Shown one piece after another: positions 1,081 through 26,652 of a stretch of 64,000 bases of DNA; positions within the stretch are counted from its first letter, which is position 1, and each line of letters begins with the position of its first letter. Under the pieces are notes generated by a model. It ran no database searches. It was not told where the DNA came from and saw only the letters and a list, made by a program, of their open reading frames with translations. Origin of the DNA: an uncultured Candidatus Saccharibacteria bacterium (lineage in GTDB: Bacteria; Patescibacteriota; Minisyncoccia; Phycocordibacterales; EsbW-18); assembly GCA_964447415.1 (NCBI GenBank), contig CAYUSN010000003.1, forward strand, positions 5,418-69,417, given 5' to 3'. The position numbers were made by a program, and so were the translations under genes.

Positions 1081-1539
1081 ATGTCTGAAAAATACTGGCG
1101 AGAAGAGGACAAAAAAGCGCTCCATGCAGCCCGTTCATACGGCGAGCTTTTTGAGGTTGCACGATGTGTTATGGAGCGAATGCCACGTCCTCGCGGACAG
1201 ATGTGTGGCCCGATTTCAACAGGCGGGGCAGGATCGATTGAAGCAAACCTAAAACGTTTTGAAATCGCATACGAGCACGCCTTGAAGCATGGGGTGGAGA
1301 TTTTTGACCAAACACCTTTTGAGCGGCACATTCACCGCATCCAAGAAAACAGCGATGAAGCAAACACATACTCCATGGGTATTCTTGAAGAGTTCTACCT
1401 TCCTATATTTGAAAACAGGCTCGTGGACAAACTTTTTTTCTTGCCCGATTGGCAGACATCACGAGGTGCTTCCTGGGAACACGAGCAGGTGAAGCGTCTG
1501 GGTCTTGAAATCGTCTACCTGCCTGAGGATATGTTCTAG
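1081..1539 (+). CDS. Hypothetical protein, possibly a Rossmann-like nucleoside 2-deoxyribosyltransferase-like (DUF4406-like) fold
   Basis: 152 aa ORF with a glycine-rich loop CGPISTGGAGS near the N-terminus. TGATAAAAT lies 6 nt before the ATG (extended -10, probably leaderless). Confidence 0.5.
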   Translation: MSEKYWREEDKKALHAARSYGELFEVARCVMERMPRPRGQMCGPISTGGAGSIEANLKRFEIAYEHALKHGVEIFDQTPFERHIHRIQENSDEANTYSMGILEEFYLPIFENRLVDKLFFLPDWQTSRGASWEHEQVKRLGLEIVYLPEDMF

Positions 1540-1554
1540 TGATAAAATGAGAGC

Positions 1555-1941
1555 ATGAAAACCATACTCGTTGATGCGGTATACGTGTTTGTAGATAAAG
1601 AGGGGAATATTGATGCGGGGCTCCACAAGCTTTTAGAGACATACCCGAACCGAAAAATTCTGCTCACCGGCGCTGATGATGTGCAGTTCAAAACATGGAA
1701 ACTCGACACAATGCCGTATGAAGTATTCACGCTCAAACATAACACTGAAAAATCAGACCCCGCGTACTATCAAAAGATGCTGGAATATTTCGGTCTCTCC
1801 GCAAACGATGTAGTGTATTTCGAGCACAGCCCCGACGCAGTCAAAAGCGCCGAATCTGTCGGCATTACCACATTTCTCTTCGATCACGAGACGCGGGATA
1901 TGAGCGCTCTCAAAAATTTCTTGGATACGAATTTGGGGTAA
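1555..1941 (+). CDS. HAD-superfamily hydrolase-like small protein
   Basis: 128 aa, begins ILVDAVYVFVDKEG (D-x-V-like motif I region) and has a later conserved D. The same TGATAAAAT-6 nt-ATG arrangement as the preceding gene. Confidence 0.5.
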   Translation: MKTILVDAVYVFVDKEGNIDAGLHKLLETYPNRKILLTGADDVQFKTWKLDTMPYEVFTLKHNTEKSDPAYYQKMLEYFGLSANDVVYFEHSPDAVKSAESVGITTFLFDHETRDMSALKNFLDTNLG

Positions 1942-1950
1942 GATGAACAC

Positions 1951-2484
1951 ATGCGTTATTTTATCGGTTTTCTTATTGAGGGAGAGGCAGGCACGTGGCA
2001 TGAGGCGCTCACCCGCGACATATCCGAGCGCTTCGGCACCCGCAAACTCCACGAGCGCGTGGTCCCGCACATAACTCTCTATAGGCCGTTTGATGCCGAT
2101 GACATCGCGCCTGTTAAAACCCTGCTTCAGTCATGGACAAAGCAGGAGCATGCCCCCGGAACAATTACGCTCTCCGGATTCGGTCACTTCACCGACCGCG
2201 TTGTGTATGCGTCTGTCACACTCGAAGCAAAAGCACAGCAGAACATTCTTGCTCTGCGCAGGGAAATTATGACCCTTCTTCCCAAAGAGGACTTTCCGAA
2301 CTGGGTACCGCACGCAACACTTGCCGATGAGTATGAGACACCGGAGATCATCACCGAAGTATGGGAATATGTGCAAACACTTCCAAAACCTGAATTTACC
2401 GTTCCGTTTAATAACGTCACGCTCTTTCGCAACAGAGCAGGCGGAGGTTGGGATGTAGATGAAATTTTTCAAATTTTGCACTAA
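1951..2484 (+). CDS. 2H phosphoesterase superfamily protein (LigT / 2'-5' RNA ligase-like)
   Basis: Two H-x-T-x motifs (PHITLY and PHATLA) at the expected spacing. TAAGAT lies 6 nt before the ATG. Confidence 0.7.
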   Translation: MRYFIGFLIEGEAGTWHEALTRDISERFGTRKLHERVVPHITLYRPFDADDIAPVKTLLQSWTKQEHAPGTITLSGFGHFTDRVVYASVTLEAKAQQNILALRREIMTLLPKEDFPNWVPHATLADEYETPEIITEVWEYVQTLPKPEFTVPFNNVTLFRNRAGGGWDVDEIFQILH

Positions 2485-2498
2485 CACATTCAACATTT

Positions 2499-2747
2499 AT
2501 GACCACGAGGATTTCAGGAGGTACCGTGCACACACTGCCCGCTGATTTCAAAAAGATGCTTCTTGCGCATCCGAAACTGCACATACTGTGGGAAGACATC
2601 ACGCCCTTGGCGCGCAATGAGTGGATTTGCTGGGTGACATCGGGCAAAAAAGAGGAGACACGGCGCATCCGTATTGAAAAGGCGCGCTCAAAGCTCGCTT
2701 CCGGCATACGCCGCCCGTGTTGCTGGGCAGGGTGTACGCATCGGTAA
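2499..2747 (+). CDS. YdeI/OmpD-associated family protein
   Basis: LARNEWICWVTSGKKEETRRIRIEKARSKLASG matches the conserved core of this family. Confidence 0.55.
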   Translation: MTTRISGGTVHTLPADFKKMLLAHPKLHILWEDITPLARNEWICWVTSGKKEETRRIRIEKARSKLASGIRRPCCWAGCTHR

Positions 2748-2763
2748 TGGTATACTTGAACCC

Positions 2764-3351
2764 ATGGACACAGTTAGTAGAGGACCGGAACAAAAAAAGA
2801 ACCGTACGTTTCTCATTCTCGTGCTTTTTTGGGTGATGTATCTTGCACTGATAAGCCCCCTCGTTCTTGGTAAGCTTGACTATCTTTCATCCGGAAAATT
2901 ATTCCAGTTTGAGGAAACAATTACCGCAGGTCGCGGAGGCACAGCATCTTCTGCTGAAGAAGCGCTGCAATATGCAATCCAAGAGCAGCAAAACAGCATG
3001 CTTTTTTCTCAAAAATATGGATTCTGTGACTCTTTTCTTGAAAGAACCCGACCACTTAATTCGTGTAAGTATGACTGTAAGAACTTCACGATTAGCAAAT
3101 CAGATCCTTCAAACAGCTACTACATGGTAGATTATGAGTGCCAACACACGGTTGTGTTTGACGAGTACCGATATACCCTCTTGTGGGCGACAGTCTTACC
3201 GATACTGATGACGCTGCTTTTCCTTCTGCTTAAAAAAAGAGGTGACCCTCATCTCGTACCAAAAATCATCGCGTTTATCCTCTTCTTTTTGTTTCTTGCA
3301 ATACTGGTTGGTTTCTATTTGGGTGCCTACAAACTATACATTGGCTTCTAA
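2764..3351 (+). CDS. Hypothetical membrane protein
   Basis: Hydrophobic helices at both ends (FLILVLFWVMYLALISPLVL; ILFFLFLAILVGFYLGAY) flank a soluble loop with several Cys. TGgTATACT lies 7 nt before the ATG. The longer track ORF from 2674 overlaps the previous gene. Confidence 0.5.
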   Translation: MDTVSRGPEQKKNRTFLILVLFWVMYLALISPLVLGKLDYLSSGKLFQFEETITAGRGGTASSAEEALQYAIQEQQNSMLFSQKYGFCDSFLERTRPLNSCKYDCKNFTISKSDPSNSYYMVDYECQHTVVFDEYRYTLLWATVLPILMTLLFLLLKKRGDPHLVPKIIAFILFFLFLAILVGFYLGAYKLYIGF

Positions 3352-4576: not shown

Positions 4577-5335
4577 ATGAATCATGACATCGCTTTCAAC
4601 GCCGGTGAATACGACGCGCATGCACAGGAGTGGGAAGAATCACTCAAAACAAACATTGCGCACAAGTACATGGAAAAACCCGCCATGGAGGCACTGCTTC
4701 CGGCAGACCTCACCGGTATGTCGGTGCTGTGTATCGGCGTGGGAAGCGGAGAAGAGTTAGAGGAAATACAAAAGAGAGGAGCGGGGAAGATTGTCGGCAT
4801 CGATATTTCGGAGCAATTGCTCGCATCCGCCCGTACGAAATTTCCTCAGGCGGAGTTTTTCATGTTAGACATGATGAATGTCGGCATATCATTTGAAAAA
4901 GAATCGTTTGATATTGTGTATTCAAGTTTGGCATTTCACTACTCTCCCGACTGGGACACCCTGCTTTCGGGCATCCATGCCGTGTTGAAGCCGCAAGGAA
5001 TGCTTGTGTTTTCGACACACCACCCGACGTACTGGGGAACAAAGGAGACGGACGGAACATTTGCTGAAAACGCCCGCGGAGTAAAGCTCACCAAACACAC
5101 GGCGATGCTGGGAAACATCAGGATTTTGTACTACAACCACCCGAATGAAGAATCCATCATTGAAAGCGTGCGGTATGCCGGCTTTAAAAACATTTCGTAT
5201 CACGTTCCGAAAGTCGTTGATATTTCCGAGGACCACAGAAGAAACATGGGCGCCGACGAACTGCAAAAATACGAAACGTTGAAAGAAAAAAGTATTGCGC
5301 GGAACCTTTTTCTTGTTGTCCGCGCGGAGAAATAA
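4577..5335 (+). CDS. Class I SAM-dependent methyltransferase
   Basis: VLCIGVGSGEE (motif I) followed by GIDISEQLL and the acidic FFMLDMMNV region. Confidence 0.75.
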   Translation: MNHDIAFNAGEYDAHAQEWEESLKTNIAHKYMEKPAMEALLPADLTGMSVLCIGVGSGEELEEIQKRGAGKIVGIDISEQLLASARTKFPQAEFFMLDMMNVGISFEKESFDIVYSSLAFHYSPDWDTLLSGIHAVLKPQGMLVFSTHHPTYWGTKETDGTFAENARGVKLTKHTAMLGNIRILYYNHPNEESIIESVRYAGFKNISYHVPKVVDISEDHRRNMGADELQKYETLKEKSIARNLFLVVRAEK

Positions 5336-5351
5336 TTTATACTAATTGTCT

Positions 5352-5397
5352 TCGTGACACGATTTTACTACATCAGTCTCACGACACGATTTTACTA
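5352..5397. promoter_or_regulatory. Two 19-nt direct repeats (TCGTGACACGATTTTACTA / TCACGACACGATTTTACTA), candidate operator upstream of the serine hydrolase gene
   Basis: Repeats start at 5352 and 5379 (27 bp apart); a third partial copy TTTATACTA lies at 5337. The second repeat ends 6 nt before the ATG at 5404. Confidence 0.35.
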
Positions 5398-5403
5398 AAT
5401 CGC

Positions 5404-5988
5404 ATGAAACAGGTCATCATCGTCCACGGGTGGGAGGGAAATCCGAATGAACCCGCACTGCAGTGGCTCAAAGGAAAATTGGAGGAAAAGGGTGTGTCGG
5501 TCACTGTGCCGGCAATGCCTGATCCAAGTGCGCCAAAAATCGAACCGTGGGTGGCAAAACTTGCGGAAGTATCTGTGTGTGGCCCCAACACTGTATTTGT
5601 CGGTCACAGCGTCGGTTGTCAGGCGGTGCTGCGCTTCCTGCAGACACTTTCGGAAGAACCGCAGGCGGCGGGTATTGTGTTATTGGCACCGTGGATGGAA
5701 TTGGATATGGAAACCATCAAAGAGGAGGGTCCCGAATCAGAAGCAATCGCGCGTCCGTGGGTGGAAACACCGATTGATTTTGCAAGAATCAAAAAACAGG
5801 TGGGGAAGACGGTTGCCATTTTTTCCGATGACGACGTCTTCGTTCCGTTGACGCAAAAAGACTTGTTTGAGAAAGCGTTAAACGCAGACACCGTCGTTGA
5901 ACACGAGCAGGGACACTTCAGTGTGAGCGAGGGGATTGTTGAGATTCCCGCAGTTCTGCGTGCTGTCGAAAAAATTCTCGGAATATAA
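5404..5988 (+). CDS. Alpha/beta serine hydrolase (RBBP9/YdeN-like Ser_hydrolase family)
   Basis: GHSVG nucleophile elbow, about 190 aa, IVHGW near the N-terminus. Confidence 0.7.
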   Translation: MKQVIIVHGWEGNPNEPALQWLKGKLEEKGVSVTVPAMPDPSAPKIEPWVAKLAEVSVCGPNTVFVGHSVGCQAVLRFLQTLSEEPQAAGIVLLAPWMELDMETIKEEGPESEAIARPWVETPIDFARIKKQVGKTVAIFSDDDVFVPLTQKDLFEKALNADTVVEHEQGHFSVSEGIVEIPAVLRAVEKILGI

Positions 5989-6051: not shown

Positions 6052-6135
6052 AGCAAAGGATAGTCAAGGAACGCTCTTTGACTCGGGCGACCGCACATTT
6101 TTGCGGTCATCATAGACTAGATAAGGAGAAACCGA

Positions 6136-6459
6136 ATGAAGATTCGCATGCTGGTGGTGTTCGTCCTCGTCCTCGCGTCCTTCGGGACGCCGATGCAGGC
6201 GACGGATGTCGCCACCTCCATCGAGATCCTCCCGCTGGGAGCCGGTCTGGACAGGGTCATGTTGACCCCGGACTACTTCACTCGGGTCGGCGACGTCAGC
6301 TTTTATGGCTTCGTCGAGTACTCGGGTGAAGCCGGCGGATGGTACACCAACCATTCGGCGACGTGGCTCCCGGGTGGTTCCTGGATCGGTCTTCGGGCCG
6401 AGGTTGAGGTTGCCGGCAGCGATCGCACGGTGCGGTTCGGCGCTCGCAAGGTGTTCTAG
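6136..6459 (+). CDS. Small secreted protein (signal peptide) of unknown function in GC-rich islet A
   Basis: 107 aa with N-terminal MKIRMLVVFVLVLASFGTPMQA. SD AAGGAG lies 8 nt upstream. Roughly 62% GC with G/C in most third positions, unlike flanking genes. Ends ...RKVF (C-terminal Phe). Confidence 0.55.
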   Translation: MKIRMLVVFVLVLASFGTPMQATDVATSIEILPLGAGLDRVMLTPDYFTRVGDVSFYGFVEYSGEAGGWYTNHSATWLPGGSWIGLRAEVEVAGSDRTVRFGARKVF

Positions 6460-6503
6460 TTCTCCCAACCACAACCTTCGAAAGGAGGTTCGAGGAAAAA
6501 ACA

Positions 6504-6548
6504 AGCCGCCGAAAGAGTCGTCACTCTTCTCGGCGGCTCTTTCGTTTC
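6504..6548 (+). terminator. Rho-independent terminator
   Basis: 14-bp interrupted stem AGCCGCCGAAAGAG...CTCTTCTCGGCGGCT followed by CTTTCGTTTCT. Confidence 0.6.
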
Positions 6549-6664
6549 TAAGTAAATACGCCCGAGACGTGTTGTTAGAAAACACTTGCACGCGCACACA
6601 AGCATCCGTACACTGCTATACGGACGGACGCGCAATTCCGCGCACCTGACGAAGGGAGCACCTC

Positions 6665-6787
6665 ATGCGTAAGGCACGGCAGGGTCGCAACCGCCACTGC
6701 AAGAGGCTGTCGCTGCGGTTCTTTCTCCAGAACCGCTGGCCCAACCACCGGCGGGTGATCCTCGCTCTGCGGTGCAAGTTCGCCTGA
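6665..6787 (+). CDS. 40-aa arginine/lysine-rich peptide (not in the ORF track), islet A
   Basis: MRKARQGRNRHCKRLSLRFFLQNRWPNHRRVILALRCKFA. Own promoter-like TTGCAC-17-TACACT (6586-6614), SD GGGAG 6 nt upstream and own terminator. Confidence 0.35.
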   Translation: MRKARQGRNRHCKRLSLRFFLQNRWPNHRRVILALRCKFA

Positions 6788-6813
6788 ACGCGAACAAGAA
6801 AGACGTTTTTACA

Positions 6814-6847
6814 GGGGGCGCCACCACGGCGCCCCGCTTGTTTTTTT
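6814..6847 (+). terminator. Rho-independent terminator
   Basis: GGGGGCGCC-accac-GGCGCCCC followed by GCTTGTTTTTTT. Confidence 0.6.
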
Positions 6848-6877
6848 ACGTTACGACCGTATACTGAAAGAGTAGCG

Positions 6878-7068
6878 ATGACGCCGATAACACGGCCGAG
6901 CTTAGGGGAAGAACCTCCGCCCATAACGGAGCAGTAGAACCTCTCGGGTGCGCCCGACACAGCGCGCAATGAAGACAGAAGTGAGGTGGCACCGCGGTCT
7001 CATGATCGCCCTTACACATTCAGCAGACCTGCACGGTTTGGTGGATTGGTAAGGGTGATTTTTCGTTT
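6878..7068 (+). promoter_or_regulatory. T-box-like riboswitch leader of aspS (putative promoter TTGTTT-16-TATACT at 6838-6865)
   Basis: AGAAGUGAGGUGGCACCGCGG (6977-6997) matches the T-box consensus AAnnnGGGUGGnACCGCG. The UGGC bulge would pair with a G73 tRNA such as tRNA-Asp. An 11-bp terminator stem ATCGCCCTTAC...GTAAGGGTGAT plus TTTTCGTTT follows. GAC triplets are present in the putative stem I. Confidence 0.5.
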
Positions 7069-18672: not shown

Positions 18673-18966
18673 GTGGATAAACGATTCGTGGAGGCGAAAC
18701 TCGTGGATGCGAAGGTCAAAACCCTCGTAGAGCGGCCGAACGGCGACATCAGAATCGTCGACTCCCTGCCCCTGGGCGGTGAAGTCGCGATTCATTTCGC
18801 CAGCGGCGTGCTCCGCGAAGACGGCACCGTTGAGCGCAGGGTCGACGGAGAAATTCACTCGACCATTACGCTCTCCGGCCGCACACTGTCGGAGGTCACC
18901 GAGGAACTCCTCAAACCGTTTCAGAAGCAGGAGGGATACCGTGCAAGGAGAACGCAGAGCAGCTAG
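18673..18966 (+). CDS. Hypothetical 98-aa protein in GC-rich islet B (start GTG; alternative ATG at 18583)
   Basis: SD AAAGGAGGTGA sits 7 nt before GTG 18673. Strong GC3 bias. Upstream TTGACA (18583-18588) and 5'UTR hairpin GGGGC-acaata-GCCCC. Confidence 0.45.
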   Translation: MDKRFVEAKLVDAKVKTLVERPNGDIRIVDSLPLGGEVAIHFASGVLREDGTVERRVDGEIHSTITLSGRTLSEVTEELLKPFQKQEGYRARRTQSS

Positions 18967-23196: not shown

Positions 23197-23502
23197 ATGG
23201 AAAAAAACCAAAAAGAACTTGATGTGTGGTTTAAGGAAAAGGGTTGGGACTACTGGGAACCGCTCGCCATTACCGCCCGTCTCTTTGAAGAGTGCGGTGA
23301 ATTCGCCCGGCTCGTCAATCACGTGTACGGTCCGAAGAAAAAGAAGTTGGATGAGCACCAACAGGACATGGAGGAAGAAATCGGCGACATCATCTACACC
23401 CTCATGTGCTTCGCCAATTCGCACAATCTTTCACTGGACAACGCCATCCGCAAAAGCATGGATAAGGTCATGGAGCGCGATAAAGACCGATATAAAAAGT
23501 AG
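23197..23502 (+). CDS. MazG-like nucleotide pyrophosphohydrolase (small, 101 aa)
   Basis: EECGEFARLV...EEIGDIIYTLMCFAN resembles the EExxE/...D MazG/NTP-PPase helical motifs. Confidence 0.6.
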   Translation: MEKNQKELDVWFKEKGWDYWEPLAITARLFEECGEFARLVNHVYGPKKKKLDEHQQDMEEEIGDIIYTLMCFANSHNLSLDNAIRKSMDKVMERDKDRYKK

Positions 23503-23513
23503 CTAGTATAAAG

Positions 23514-23540
23514 GGCCCAGTGGACGAATCCACCGGGCCC
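23514..23540. terminator. Bidirectional hairpin terminator at the left edge of islet C
   Basis: GGGCCCAGTGGA-cgaa-TCCACCGGGCCC followed by CCTCTTTCCTTTCGG, between convergent mazG-like and islet gene C2. Confidence 0.5.
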
Positions 23541-23568
23541 CCTCTTTCCTTTCGGAAGAGCGTTCGTG

Positions 23569-23961
23569 TCAGGTGAGGAGCTCGACGGTGTTGGGCGACA
23601 TGGTCGCCTTCCCACCGCCATCGAGCATGACCTTGAGGATGAAGTCGCCCCGGATCTCGGCGACGACGCCCTTGGGCCTGCTCGCCATCGCCGCGTCGAG
23701 CACCTTCGTGCCGACGTCGATGCCGAGCCGCTGGATCACCAGCTTCCGGCGCGAGAGCGCCCTCCAGAGCGTGATGGCCTTGATGGTCTGGTGGAAGCCG
23801 ACGAAATCCGTGTATTGCATGATGCCACGGATCTCCGCCAGCATCTCGCTCTTGGCCTTCTTGTCCCTGGTCCTGTACGACCTCTCGGAGAGCTGGTCGA
23901 CCCGATCGAGTTGCTCCTGTGATTCGGCGAGGATGAACCTGTCCCGCAACTTCTCCTTCAT
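23569..23961 (-). CDS. Hypothetical 130-aa protein, GC-rich islet C (gene C2)
   Basis: About 62% GC with GC3 bias; SD GAGGGAGG 7 nt before the ATG; no recognisable family. Confidence 0.5.
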   Translation of the reverse strand: MKEKLRDRFILAESQEQLDRVDQLSERSYRTRDKKAKSEMLAEIRGIMQYTDFVGFHQTIKAITLWRALSRRKLVIQRLGIDVGTKVLDAAMASRPKGVVAEIRGDFILKVMLDGGGKATMSPNTVELLT

Positions 23962-23994
23962 GTGGTACCTCCCTCTCGTTGCTGGTTGGGTTGG

Positions 23995-24468
23995 TTAGGT
24001 GGACGGGTCGAGGATCTTGGCGACCGCCTCGGGCTTGACGATGAACCGACTCATGTCCGAGCCAGCGTAGAACGGCCGACGTTGATTCGTGCGCATCCAC
24101 GTGGCCAGCTCGCGACACTGGTTCGCCATCTCCTTCTCGATCTGTTCGACCGAAGCGATCTTCGGCGCGTGCCAGCCGCGGCGCTCCCTCCACCAGCGGA
24201 TGATGGGGTTGCGCTTGGTGTGCTCGCTGACGACCTCTTCGTGGCGCCGAACGGAGCGGTTGTGGAACTCCGTGGCGGCTTCCTTGAAGACCTCGACGAT
24301 CTGCTCGGGGGTGAGCGTCTCCCACTCCTTGCCGCCGAAGATCGGGACGTCGTCGAAGAAGGTGTGGAACCTATCGATTGGGTCCGTCGGCTTCTTGTTC
24401 AGATCGATCTCTTCGACCGAGACGACCCGCATTCCCTGCGCCGTCTTCTTGTAGCCGATTGTCAACAT
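23995..24468 (-). CDS. Hypothetical 157-aa protein, GC-rich islet C (gene C1)
   Basis: SD AAAGGAGGAG 8 nt before ATG (MLTIGYKK); basic W/R-rich centre IRWWRERRGWHAP; no recognisable family. Confidence 0.5.
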   Translation of the reverse strand: MLTIGYKKTAQGMRVVSVEEIDLNKKPTDPIDRFHTFFDDVPIFGGKEWETLTPEQIVEVFKEAATEFHNRSVRRHEEVVSEHTKRNPIIRWWRERRGWHAPKIASVEQIEKEMANQCRELATWMRTNQRRPFYAGSDMSRFIVKPEAVAKILDPST

Positions 24469-24555
24469 CTTTTTTACTCCTCCTTTACGAGGCAGTGGTT
24501 GATCAGAAAACCGAGATGGCATCCTGGTTCACCGCACCACTTACATCTGTAGAGT

Positions 24556-24583
24556 ATTATACACATTTTTGTCATAATGTCAA
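24556..24583 (-). promoter_or_regulatory. Near-consensus sigma70 promoter (TTGACA, 16-nt spacer, TATAAT) driving islet C
   Basis: On the minus strand, TTGACA (+24578-24583) and TATAAT (+24556-24561). It abuts the divergent recR -35 candidate TTGCAA at 24584-24589. Confidence 0.6.
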
Positions 24584-24629
24584 TTGCAAAAAGAAAAAGG
24601 TAAAAATAAATTTCTGTTAAAATACCCGT

Positions 24630-25235
24630 ATGCACAGCATTCAGAAACTTGCTGAATACTTCCAGAAATTCCCCGGTATCGGACCGAGGCAGGCGAAGCG
24701 TTTCGTCCATTTTTTGCTCACACAGGAAAAAAGCGTGCTGGAAGACCTCTCCAAACGCATAAGCGAGCTTCGCGGTTCAGTGACGCAATGCAAGCAATGC
24801 TTCCGCTTCTATGATGCCGACGGATACGCCGAAGTGTGCGATATCTGCTCCTCACCCAACCGCGACACGCATCAGCTTATGGTGTTGGAGAAAGACGCGG
24901 ACTTAGACGCCATTGAGAAAAGTGGTGCGTACACAGGACGCTACTTCGTGCTCGGCGGCACCGTTCCCCTTCTTCAGACACAGGCAAGTCCGTTGCGCAC
25001 AAAAGAGCTGAAAAAACTGCTTGATACAAATGCAGAAATAACAGAAATCATTATTGCCACCGGCGCACACCCCGAAGGTGAAATGACCGCACAGCACGTG
25101 CGCCTCTTCCTCCAGCCGTTTGCGGCGCATAAAAAACTGCGCGTCTCGGAACTCGGCCGCGGACTCTCCACGGGCACCGAATTGGAATATTCCGATGCCG
25201 ACACCATTAAGAGTGCACTGGAGAACAGAAAATAA
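24630..25235 (+). CDS. recR: Recombination protein RecR
   Basis: Helix-hairpin-helix LAEYFQKFPGIGPRQAKRF, C4 zinc finger CKQC...CDIC and Toprim domain. TAAAAT lies 6 nt before the ATG. Confidence 0.9.
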   Translation: MHSIQKLAEYFQKFPGIGPRQAKRFVHFLLTQEKSVLEDLSKRISELRGSVTQCKQCFRFYDADGYAEVCDICSSPNRDTHQLMVLEKDADLDAIEKSGAYTGRYFVLGGTVPLLQTQASPLRTKELKKLLDTNAEITEIIIATGAHPEGEMTAQHVRLFLQPFAAHKKLRVSELGRGLSTGTELEYSDADTIKSALENRK

Positions 25236-25263: not shown

Positions 25264-26652
25264 TTAGATTTCCGAGAAACCGAGAAGATTAATCGGCGAT
25301 TCCTCGATAAGAACATCGTTTATATAGGAACGGGAAGAGATAATCTCTTGAAGATATTTGGTTTGCCCGGCTTGATATATATTCGGTTCGTTGGGAATGA
25401 TGTATGTTTTGATTCTCCCCACGTGCACAATCTCAAGTCGCGGCTCTTGCGGGTAGTGCTCCGCAATCCATTCATTCATTTCTCGCCGTGTCATAAACTC
25501 ATATTTTTGCCCCGTATCAACTTCAAACACGCCGTAACGCTTCATATTCACGACCACCTCATCCGCAGTATCATAGCCATGAAATGTCGGGGTAAAATCT
25601 CCCTGTATATCTCCACCTTTTTCCGGTTCTTCCCAGTAGTACGTGTACGCACGTGTATCTTTAATCCACCTCTCAAAATAAATAAATTTATATGCCCCCG
25701 AGAGATTCGTAGAGACAACAGTGCCGTCTTTCGTCGAACGCACAACTAATTTAGTGGGATACACATAATGGTTGCCGCGGTCCTCCGGTTCTCTGTCTTT
25801 ATCATCTTCGTGCACAACAACCAGCTCACCGTCGGTTGACACTACATCACCTCCAAACAGGTATTGATACGGACGCGGCGGTTCGACGAACTGTGAGATA
25901 ACTTTAGACCCCTCCACGGTGAAGACGCCCCATATATAATTGGGATAATTCTCACCGTAGTTCGTAATCAAAACCTTTGTCCCATCGTAAAACCCTATAT
26001 CGTGCCCCGTATAGAAGGTATCCGGAAGCGGCGCGGTTGTTGTGTCTTCGGGATTCTCCAAAGACAAGGTCAGCAAAACCTCCTCCATATCTCCGTATTG
26101 AATATCGGAGTCTTCTGCACACCAGCGGGGAGTCGTTTGAACAACAGCCATTCGTTCCTCATCCGTAGAGAGACGCAGGGTAAAAACAAAACCGGGGCCC
26201 TGCGCGAGCACGCGCTCTTTGGAATCACGGAGAGACCGCGCGACTATTTTGTAATTTTTGAAACTGCAATAATACCCAAAAGGGCTTTCAACAGAATCTC
26301 TTTCATTTATTACATACACATATTCTCCCGTTTTCGGAGAAACAAAACCGGCAAACCCCTCGCCCGTAGAAAAGAGCTGGCGTTTCTCTGAACCATCCAT
26401 ATTCGCAACAAGTATTTGGGTGCTCGTCGCTGTGGCGTTTGCAGGTGGTAATTTTGTATACACCACAACGGTTTTGCCTGCTTTCGCCTGCTGTTCTTCC
26501 CCGCTGGTGTTCTCGTTATTTTGTGCAGGTGTCAGATATGCGTACAAAAAGGCTCCCGCCACCACCGCGGCAGCAAGGGATACGGGGATAAGCCACTTCT
26601 TTGATGATTTTTGCGCCTCAGGAACTTGCTGCACGGGAGCTTGTAGTTCCAT
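25264..26652 (-). CDS. Hypothetical membrane-anchored protein (462 aa), AT-rich relative to its surroundings
   Basis: N-terminal TM WLIPVSLAAAVVAGAFLYAYL, then a long extracytoplasmic region with no recognisable domain; about 42% GC. Confidence 0.55.
   Translation of the reverse strand: MELQAPVQQVPEAQKSSKKWLIPVSLAAAVVAGAFLYAYLTPAQNNENTSGEEQQAKAGKTVVVYTKLPPANATATSTQILVANMDGSEKRQLFSTGEGFAGFVSPKTGEYVYVINERDSVESPFGYYCSFKNYKIVARSLRDSKERVLAQGPGFVFTLRLSTDEERMAVVQTTPRWCAEDSDIQYGDMEEVLLTLSLENPEDTTTAPLPDTFYTGHDIGFYDGTKVLITNYGENYPNYIWGVFTVEGSKVISQFVEPPRPYQYLFGGDVVSTDGELVVVHEDDKDREPEDRGNHYVYPTKLVVRSTKDGTVVSTNLSGAYKFIYFERWIKDTRAYTYYWEEPEKGGDIQGDFTPTFHGYDTADEVVVNMKRYGVFEVDTGQKYEFMTRREMNEWIAEHYPQEPRLEIVHVGRIKTYIIPNEPNIYQAGQTKYLQEIISSRSYINDVLIEESPINLLGFSEI

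Follow-up and report, generated by a model that had tools for sequence, protein, structure and literature searches.

The GC-rich segment between mazG and recR

We analysed a GC-rich segment that lies between a mazG-like gene and recR in a 64,000-nucleotide (nt) stretch of contig CAYUSN010000003.1, the whole of which is called the window here. The segment carries two genes, ORF A and ORF B, on the strand opposite to their neighbours. Its features, in window coordinates, are the following.

23206-23502, plus strand: mazG-like gene (Pfam MazG, E 6.5e-14)
23512-23560, both strands: double hairpin, with a GGGCCC...GGGCCC stem at 23514-23541 and a smaller CTCTTCC/GGAAAGAG stem at 23542-23560
23569-23961, minus strand: ORF B, 130 amino acids (aa)
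23962-23994, minus strand: A-B spacer of 33 nt, holding the ORF B Shine-Dalgarno sequence GAGGGAGG at 23968-23975
23995-24468, minus strand: ORF A, 157 aa
24028-24412, minus strand: hypervariable core of ORF A (codons 19-147), with two discrete alleles, 26% divergent in DNA
24477-24486, minus strand: ORF A Shine-Dalgarno sequence AAAGGAGGAG
24469-24549, minus strand: 5' leader of ORF A, about 80 nt, identical in the related locus L044
24583..24556, minus strand: A-B promoter TTGACA-16-TATAAT, sigma-70-type, 12/12 match
24585-24629, plus strand: candidate promoter region of recR, divergent from the adjoining cassette promoter (TTGCAA at 24585-24590; extended -10 TGTTAAAAT at 24615-24623)
24630-25235, plus strand: recR

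Promoter, 80-nt leader, ORF A, a gap of 33 nt, ORF B and a hairpin terminator shared with mazG would in this order make up a single cassette. The first-pass annotation of this DNA had proposed two minus-strand ORFs of 157 and 130 aa with strong Shine-Dalgarno sequences and a 33-nt spacer, placed between a perfect TTGACA/TATAAT promoter and a bidirectional GGGCCC...GGGCCC hairpin in a segment of about 62% GC and foreign composition, and it had ascribed the remaining open frames to the GC content. We found both ORFs again at the same coordinates, and the other points held as well: the promoter is unique in the window, the hairpin folds stably on both strands and is kept in sister strains, and codon-position GC agrees with the choice of the two frames that have Shine-Dalgarno sequences.

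The compositional check confirmed that the segment is an outlier. GC content is 0.59-0.64 over 23550-24449, whereas the immediate flanks have 0.50 and 0.42 and the window as a whole 0.517; the cassette as such has 0.62, the adjacent genes 0.49-0.55. GC at third codon positions (GC3) is 0.886 in ORF A and 0.924 in ORF B, whereas the 67 window ORFs have a mean of 0.563 (standard deviation 0.075, maximum 0.76), which places the two genes 4.3 and 4.8 standard deviations above the mean. Among the open frames of the segment, only those of ORF A and ORF B have GC3 far above GC2. A competing frame of 285 aa showed the inverted codon-position pattern (GC1 0.85, GC3 0.43) and was rejected as a GC artefact. 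ORF A could alternatively start at an in-frame ATG at 24522, giving 175 aa; the family alignment begins at the Met of the 157-aa form. That both ORFs are merely spurious open frames in GC-rich non-coding DNA would fit the many frames open across the segment, but is hardly credible: the codon-position pattern is confined to the chosen frames, both have a Shine-Dalgarno sequence, their AlphaFold2 models reach predicted local distance difference test scores (pLDDT) of 90.4 and 76.5, and the conservation pattern, with homologues that keep conserved columns at a ratio of non-synonymous to synonymous substitution rates (dN/dS) below 1, refutes it.

The pattern TTGACA-N15-19-TAWAAT occurs once in the 64 kb, at the A-B promoter, with a chance expectation of 0.08. 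The leader that follows shows no significant structure (folding z -1.0) and no Rfam match, and Rfam scans of the segment and of the sister-strain slots likewise gave no match. The double hairpin at the other end folds with -34.4 kcal/mol (z -5.3) on the minus strand and -28 kcal/mol (z -2.9) on the plus strand, and its GGGCCC stem is kept in the sister loci L018 and L020 through compensatory changes. It is predicted to be a bidirectional terminator common to mazG on the plus strand and the A-B transcript on the minus strand.

On the recR side, a block ATTTTA[AG]CAGAAA before recR is common to the window, L018, L029 and L043. The extended -10 TGTTAAAAT ends 6 nt before the recR ATG (24630), and there is no Shine-Dalgarno sequence there, so the recR mRNA may be leaderless in the window strain. 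The same -10 block stands about 50 nt upstream in L018.

The dnaB-recR interval in sister strains

The flanking genes share 86-92% DNA identity and 92-97% protein identity with those of sister strains, in which the homology stops at 23518 or 23547 and resumes at 24623. Seven arrangements of the interval between dnaB and recR were seen, here designated by locus.

Window: dnaB, mazG, then B and A (minus strand), recR
L018 group: dnaB, 176 aa, mazG, then 160 aa and B' (minus strand), recR
L020 group: dnaB, 130 aa, mazG, then 97 aa and B' (minus strand), recR
L029/L030: dnaB, B'' (minus strand), recR; without mazG
L042: dnaB, 174 aa, 104-aa Trypco2 protein (E 2.7e-6), recR; without mazG and B
L043: dnaB, PemK/MazF toxin (E 3.5e-11), mazG, then 64 aa and a 255-aa membrane protein (minus strand), recR
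L044: end of a membrane-protein cassette, terminator, promoter, then A (allele 2), B, mazG

The recR-proximal slot thus carries different loads in sister strains, and in L018-L023 and L029 the slot promoter leads to ORF B with no ORF A in between. Two housekeeping genes had been named as the flanks of the segment; this stands undisputed for recR, but not for the mazG-like gene, which is not fixed and is missing in two of the seven arrangements. The cargo on the recR side is always GC-rich (0.59-0.63) and that on the dnaB side always AT-rich (0.36-0.39). Some occupants have phage relatives. The 160-aa protein of L018 has homologues in Dulem virus 39 (56% identity, E 1e-27) and in Streptomyces phage Gilgamesh (gp28, 46%, E 2e-17), both located in early or lysogeny regions, and the 97-aa and 130-aa occupants of L020 gave weaker phage matches.

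Around these unrelated loads, an expression frame recurs. In L018 and L043, a common 5' block of 129 nt (77% identity) and a common terminator block of 53 nt (89%) enclose B' in one case and the 255-aa membrane protein in the other. Within the 5' block lie the -10 of recR, a promoter with TTGACA, the leader hairpin AGTCGCGTAAAATCGCGAC and a Shine-Dalgarno sequence. The GTCGCG-N6-CGCGAC palindrome of this hairpin is kept in L018-L023, L029/L030 and L043; as RNA it reads GUCGCG-N6-CGCGRC (L018 1415-1495, fold z -3.1; L029 330-405; L043 5178-5195), belongs to no Rfam family and might serve as an operator, stabilise the RNA or be a site of recombination. Both L018 cassettes start with GGGTGGGTRRTTGACA, and each cassette in the sister strains ends with a terminator followed by the next cassette's own promoter. 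The near-perfect identity of L018 and L020 breaks exactly between the B' terminator and the next promoter. The A-B promoter of the window aligns with the slot promoters of L018, L029 and L043 in a homologous layout. In L044, the same platform terminator and then GGGCGGGTGATTGACA precede the A-B cassette, which has the -10 and leader of the window copy. As read from these sequences, the slot loads are autonomous transcription units, with the same promoter, leader hairpin and terminator placed around unrelated ORFs in the sister strains. We considered a hammerhead ribozyme for the CUGAUGAG terminator and rejected it because the sequence folds as a plain long hairpin and has no Rfam match.

Such a frame resembles integron cassette arrays, in which strain-variable small ORFs of one orientation, much of them of unknown function, are shuffled beside a fixed expression platform. 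The slot could accordingly be conceived as a site-specific cassette-capture system in which a recombinase acts at the leader hairpin GTCGCG-N6-CGCGAC or at the terminator stem. The conserved promoter, leader and terminator around unrelated ORFs, the sharp breakpoints and the retention of the palindrome across the loci named above are what this model would predict. However, neither an integrase nor another recombinase gene adjoins the slot among the ORFs scanned, and intI, attC-like and attI sites are lacking. Every cassette has its own promoter and terminator, the A-B spacer measures only 33 nt, and the window copy is without the hairpin. We regard an integron analogue as quite unlikely; exchange in the slot probably proceeds, unlike in integrons, by homologous recombination.

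The second sub-slot, between dnaB and mazG, is likewise strain-variable (L043 3159-4010; L042 3108-3993; L018 2880-3410; L020 2746-3138). It holds a 176-aa orphan in L018 and a 130-aa coiled-coil zinc-ribbon protein matching phrog_1244 in L020. The PemK/MazF gene of L043 lies directly upstream of mazG with no obvious antitoxin ORF, an order that recalls mazEF-mazG of E. coli. In the same locus, which belongs to the Campbellbacteria metagenome-assembled genome (MAG) GCA_045863475.1, a 12-nt inverted repeat (CCCGTTAGAGAT / ATCTCTAACGGG; 5290-5412) brackets about 110 nt directly upstream of recR, a stretch that may represent a small insertion or form a long hairpin.

Separate histories of ORF A and ORF B

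The first-pass annotation could assign neither protein to a named family, and our family, PDB-sequence and structure searches (AlphaFold and Foldseek) came back equally empty. There is no Pfam, NCBIfam, PHROG or PADLOC family for ORF A or ORF B. No PADLOC-DB 2.0 model matches either protein at E up to 1, or the ORF B homologues at E up to 0.1. Single-sequence and profile searches against PDB sequences gave nothing below E 0.3, and no relative was found in IMG/VR, GenBank phages, or plasmid and viral collections.

ORF B is the usual resident of the recR-proximal slot in this lineage and evolves very fast. An exhaustive hidden Markov model search of 1.84 billion representatives returned only relatives of 98%, 59% and 38% identity, all confined to sister strains of the window lineage. 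In L018-L023, L029 and L030 these relatives occur without ORF A, followed by the 160-aa or the 97-aa protein or alone, beside recR. Homology to the B loci of L018 and L029 begins 5-11 nt before the ORF B start, indicating that ORF A and its leader occupy the usual position of the ORF B leader. The TAACCAAC start of the A-B spacer resembles the distal ORF B leader of sister strains over 8 nt, a likeness that is only suggestive. Compared with sister strains, dN of ORF B is 0.32-0.59, whereas that of its neighbours is 0.02-0.05 at comparable dS; the dN/dS of 0.32-0.65, versus 0.03-0.10 for the flanking genes, depends on dS estimates that are unreliable at GC3 near 0.9. B' is identical in L018 and L020 (dS 0.011) despite flanks that differ (dS 0.1-0.3), which indicates a recent exchange. 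The AlphaFold2 model of ORF B (pLDDT 76.5) has three N-terminal helices followed by a small C-terminal beta domain without a PDB match (Foldseek best E 0.8). A weak match to an SH3-like-repeat protein suggests that this domain might be an SH3-like barrel.

ORF A is a member of a rare family of stand-alone proteins of about 155 aa, which comprises about 25 clusters and is found mostly in Patescibacteria. In an alignment of 22 relatives, F38, P42, W49, W99, W124, R131, F133, D138, K145, P146 and V149 are invariant, and dN/dS for the family is about 0.2. The confident AlphaFold2 model (pLDDT 90.4, predicted template-modelling score 0.75) shows an N-terminal beta-hairpin and then a helical bundle, a fold with no match in the PDB (Foldseek best E 1.2) or in BFVD. 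All 21 family members scanned gave scattered weak matches only. DUF4411, a domain of unknown function, was rejected for ORF A, with E 0.044 over 35 residues in 3 of the 21 members. In the homologue P0019, transmembrane helices replace the N-terminal hairpin. Residues 89-126 of ORF A (window 24090-24203) and residues 191-222 of the 255-aa protein of L043 (4390-5157, minus strand) share RWW-x-E/H-R-x-W ... L-x-x-W-M/I-R-x-N; kinship of these two slot occupants was not significant by hhalign (E 0.05, probability 1%) and was rejected.

Outside the window lineage, ORF A is a mobile single-gene family that always occurs alone with a near-consensus promoter and a terminator. Only 3 of 185,579 species-representative genomes have a relative. 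The family was examined in 12 further loci on Patescibacteria-type contigs, among them MAGs of Moraniibacteriota and Paceibacterota, ACD_56C and BH11PAT2. In each of these, the gene is a singleton between unrelated housekeeping genes, and an all-against-all comparison of every ORF within 2.5 kb revealed no recurrent neighbour across the 13 loci. Every copy outside the window lineage has a near-consensus promoter (TTGACA-17-TAAKAT) 80-100 nt upstream, and the units carry their own terminator GGGCTCC...GGAGCCC followed by a T run. The ORF A genes lie 6-15 GC points above every host locus. L001, L009 and L032 have in common a 735-815-bp unit that begins at the promoter, extends about 160 nt beyond the stop codon and is 87-91% identical in unrelated surroundings whose background GC differs, e.g. 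39% in L001 and 46% in L009. The L032 copy contains an in-frame TAG and has lost invariant residues, and is therefore a pseudogene. We rejected a transposon, as the unit is without terminal inverted or direct repeats, and a tRNA-linked integration, as tRNA genes are not consistently adjacent.

These data bear on the idea that A and B are ordinary lineage-specific genes whose high GC3 results from strong expression or amino-acid content. Purifying selection on ORF A and a dS of ORF B of the order of the flanks, compatible with vertical descent, would agree with it. On the other side, ORF A is missing in five sister-strain arrangements with cargo unrelated to the cassette, GC3 exceeds that of the 67 window ORFs by 4-5 standard deviations, the A-family genes surpass the GC of every host locus, and near-identical units, one of them decayed, sit in unrelated flanks. 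We consider ordinary vertical genes very improbable.

The core of ORF A adds a further layer of variation. Between the window and L044/L045, the leader, both ends of ORF A and ORF B are 99-100% identical in DNA, and the core in between differs at 102 of 385 positions without indels (35, 29 and 38 at the three codon positions; dN 0.31, dS 0.46, dN/dS 0.68). Both alleles are equally far from the rest of the family. Allele 1 was present in six sequencing runs and allele 2, that of L044, in two. A diversity-generating retroelement was rejected because the substitution spectrum is not adenine-specific: the differences, spread over all codon positions, comprise 29 from A, 38 from C, 22 from G and 13 from T. 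Neither a direct repeat of the core nor a reverse transcriptase domain was found in the ORFs scanned near the locus.

Two genes that form a compact bicistron of foreign composition under a strong promoter, found together in two array contexts and with a PemK/MazF toxin and Trypco2 in the sister-strain interval, invite a reading as a toxin-antitoxin, abortive-infection or defence module, in which one product would poison the cell or the phage and the other restrain it. Type II systems such as mazEF and pemIK also pair two small genes behind one strong promoter in foreign DNA. This is what the first-pass annotation had tentatively put forward, and the pairing is not supported by the comparison. 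ORF A is alone in 12 loci without a recurrent neighbour, and ORF B occurs alone or with unrelated partners. The proposal was to be abandoned if homologues turned up as unlinked singletons in core genomes, and such singletons were found for ORF A. Unlike in type II systems, A and B are separated by a 33-nt gap and show no conserved co-occurrence, and the upstream gene, ORF A, is the mobile and independently distributed one. Nothing in PADLOC, Pfam, NCBIfam or PHROGs, and no toxin or antitoxin fold, matches either protein. No helix-turn-helix, ribbon-helix-helix, AbrB or Phd-type domain was recognised in sequence or fold searches, in which the ORF B model was of moderate confidence only, and a relation of ORF A to ORF B was rejected for lack of significance in hhalign. 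A dedicated pair of this kind appears improbable. What is supported is the foreign composition, the own promoter and the strain variation of the segment, and sister intervals also carry conflict-type genes (PemK/MazF, Trypco2 and phage-like small proteins).

Probable moron-like cassettes beside recR

The variable loads of the slot, their organisation as autonomous units, the stand-alone distribution of ORF A and the residence of ORF B in the slot together mark A and B as unrelated passengers that were fused into a single operon here. We consider it probable, though by no means certain, that the segment is a horizontally acquired bicistronic cassette in a hypervariable slot divergent from recR on a Candidatus Campbellbacteria (Patescibacteria) chromosome, a slot which takes up moron-like, recombination-exchanged and conflict-related accessory loads. 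The repeated promoter and terminator sequences would be the sites of homologous or illegitimate recombination through which strains acquire, lose and exchange cassettes, in the manner proposed for phage morons, and the products of ORF A and ORF B would be dispensable cytoplasmic accessory proteins engaged in conflict with phage, mobile elements or a host. A conflict-related role of the cassettes is probable in view of the dN/dS of ORF B, the two ORF A alleles, the phage homologues of other occupants, and PemK and Trypco2 in the adjacent sub-slot.

Several observations weigh against this interpretation. The comparisons rest wholly on metagenome contigs, and no recombination junction was proven. 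No empty slot was found among the strains seen, and neither ORF A nor ORF B had a phage, plasmid or defence-model homologue in the collections searched. A and B occur together in both array contexts in which A is found in this lineage, so that a functional coupling is possible. Leader hairpin, GGGYGGGT motif and platform terminator are all lacking in the window copy, and the expression frame is consequently inferred from the sister strains. Promoter use and A-B co-transcription are predictions from the nucleotide sequence, and the uncertainty of dS mentioned above counts on the same side.

In the passage of PMC4378225 that cites Juhala/Hendrix 2000 and Cumby 2012, a moron is a single coding region that has its own promoter and factor-independent terminator, separates genes which are neighbours in related phages, deviates in composition and is acquired by an unknown mechanism. 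The slot units share with phage morons the autonomous organisation (promoter, ORF, intrinsic terminator), the insertion between otherwise adjacent genes and the deviant composition; their cargo is accessory, often of unknown function, and some other occupants have phage homologues. Unlike morons, they are not part of a phage or prophage genome: dnaB, cysS, recR and ribosomal protein genes of a bacterial chromosome surround the slot, and no phage gene was found among the neighbouring ORFs scanned. They also form a small array with repeated promoter and terminator, and the window has two ORFs on one promoter. The segment therefore works like a moron without being one in the strict sense. As in defence islands and integration hotspots, a short core-flanked interval holds different accessory or conflict genes in each strain. 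Unlike those, the slot measures only 0.4-1.3 kb in a streamlined Patescibacteria genome, the window copy contains no known defence system, and two neighbouring sub-slots have opposite GC (0.59-0.63 versus 0.36-0.39). On this comparison, the finding is best described as moron-like accessory cassettes in a hotspot, array-like and chromosomal unlike published morons.

A bolder variant would make the recR-proximal slot of Campbellbacteria an undescribed cassette-exchange platform without integron machinery, in which unrelated GC-rich ORFs are swapped into a fixed frame of divergent promoter, palindromic leader hairpin and terminator, and at the same time ORF A a conflict protein of new fold whose core is maintained in discrete, strongly divergent alleles by diversifying selection and recombination. 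We hold this combination to be rather unlikely. Two points deserve attention: swappable ORFs of a Patescibacteria chromosome are enclosed in a conserved expression frame, and the hypervariable core of ORF A is biallelic. Patescibacteria genomes are tiny and streamlined, and the gain and exchange of accessory genes in them are little known. Under the moron-like interpretation, the interval of 1 kb that separates core genes of replication and repair acts as a miniature cassette array, with expression signals that are reused and cargo partly from a phage-like pool. If general, it would offer a tractable means of following gene flux and genetic conflict at the strain level in uncultured episymbionts. 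Two unannotated protein families come with it, of which ORF A has a confident predicted structure and no fold match in the PDB or BFVD.

Some minor features of the ORF A units and of the window may be added. About 160 nt downstream of ORF A homologues are about 90% conserved (L009 2277-2439, L001 5577-5737, L032 4475-4637) and comprise a small hairpin, the terminator and then a tail of about 100 nt, in which a perfect stem of 15 bp (AATCCCTGCCGTTTT / AAAACGGCAGGGATT) closes a loop containing TATAAT. The window copy is without this tail, which may represent a small RNA or a promoter directed outwards. L001 (4610-4703) and L032 (4750-4846) also have in common a sequence of about 95 nt (84% identity), which lies upstream of the unit in L001 and, in the opposite orientation, downstream of it in L032; it may be a small repeat element accompanying ORF A units. 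L032, from a Moraniibacteriota MAG, also encodes a 529-aa ABC-type ATPase (1468-3057) that matches the AriA, PtuA, OLD and GajA defence models (E down to 6e-15) about 0.9 kb upstream of the decayed ORF A; it is the sole ORF A locus adjoining a recognisable defence gene.

The other window genes around the slot are metK, gltX, an M23 peptidase gene, the L9 gene, a ctpB-like protease gene, cysS, dnaB, murI, an NAD kinase gene, ddl and uvrC. The fellow members of the 90% clusters of the window DnaB and CysS are named Candidatus Campbellbacteria bacterium. Directly downstream of recR, on the opposite strand, lies an ORF of 462 aa (25264-26652, minus strand) without a Pfam match and with a GC content of about 0.46, below the window average. 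Two more GC-rich patches lack Pfam matches. One, between the ctpB-like protease and L9 genes, holds an ORF of 97 aa and about 61% GC (18673-18966, plus strand), at the position of which sister strains have a 90-aa gene; the other (6064-6969, minus strand) holds two ORFs of 177 and 117 aa with 57-58% GC. The GC peak of the window at 500-1000 corresponds to metK.

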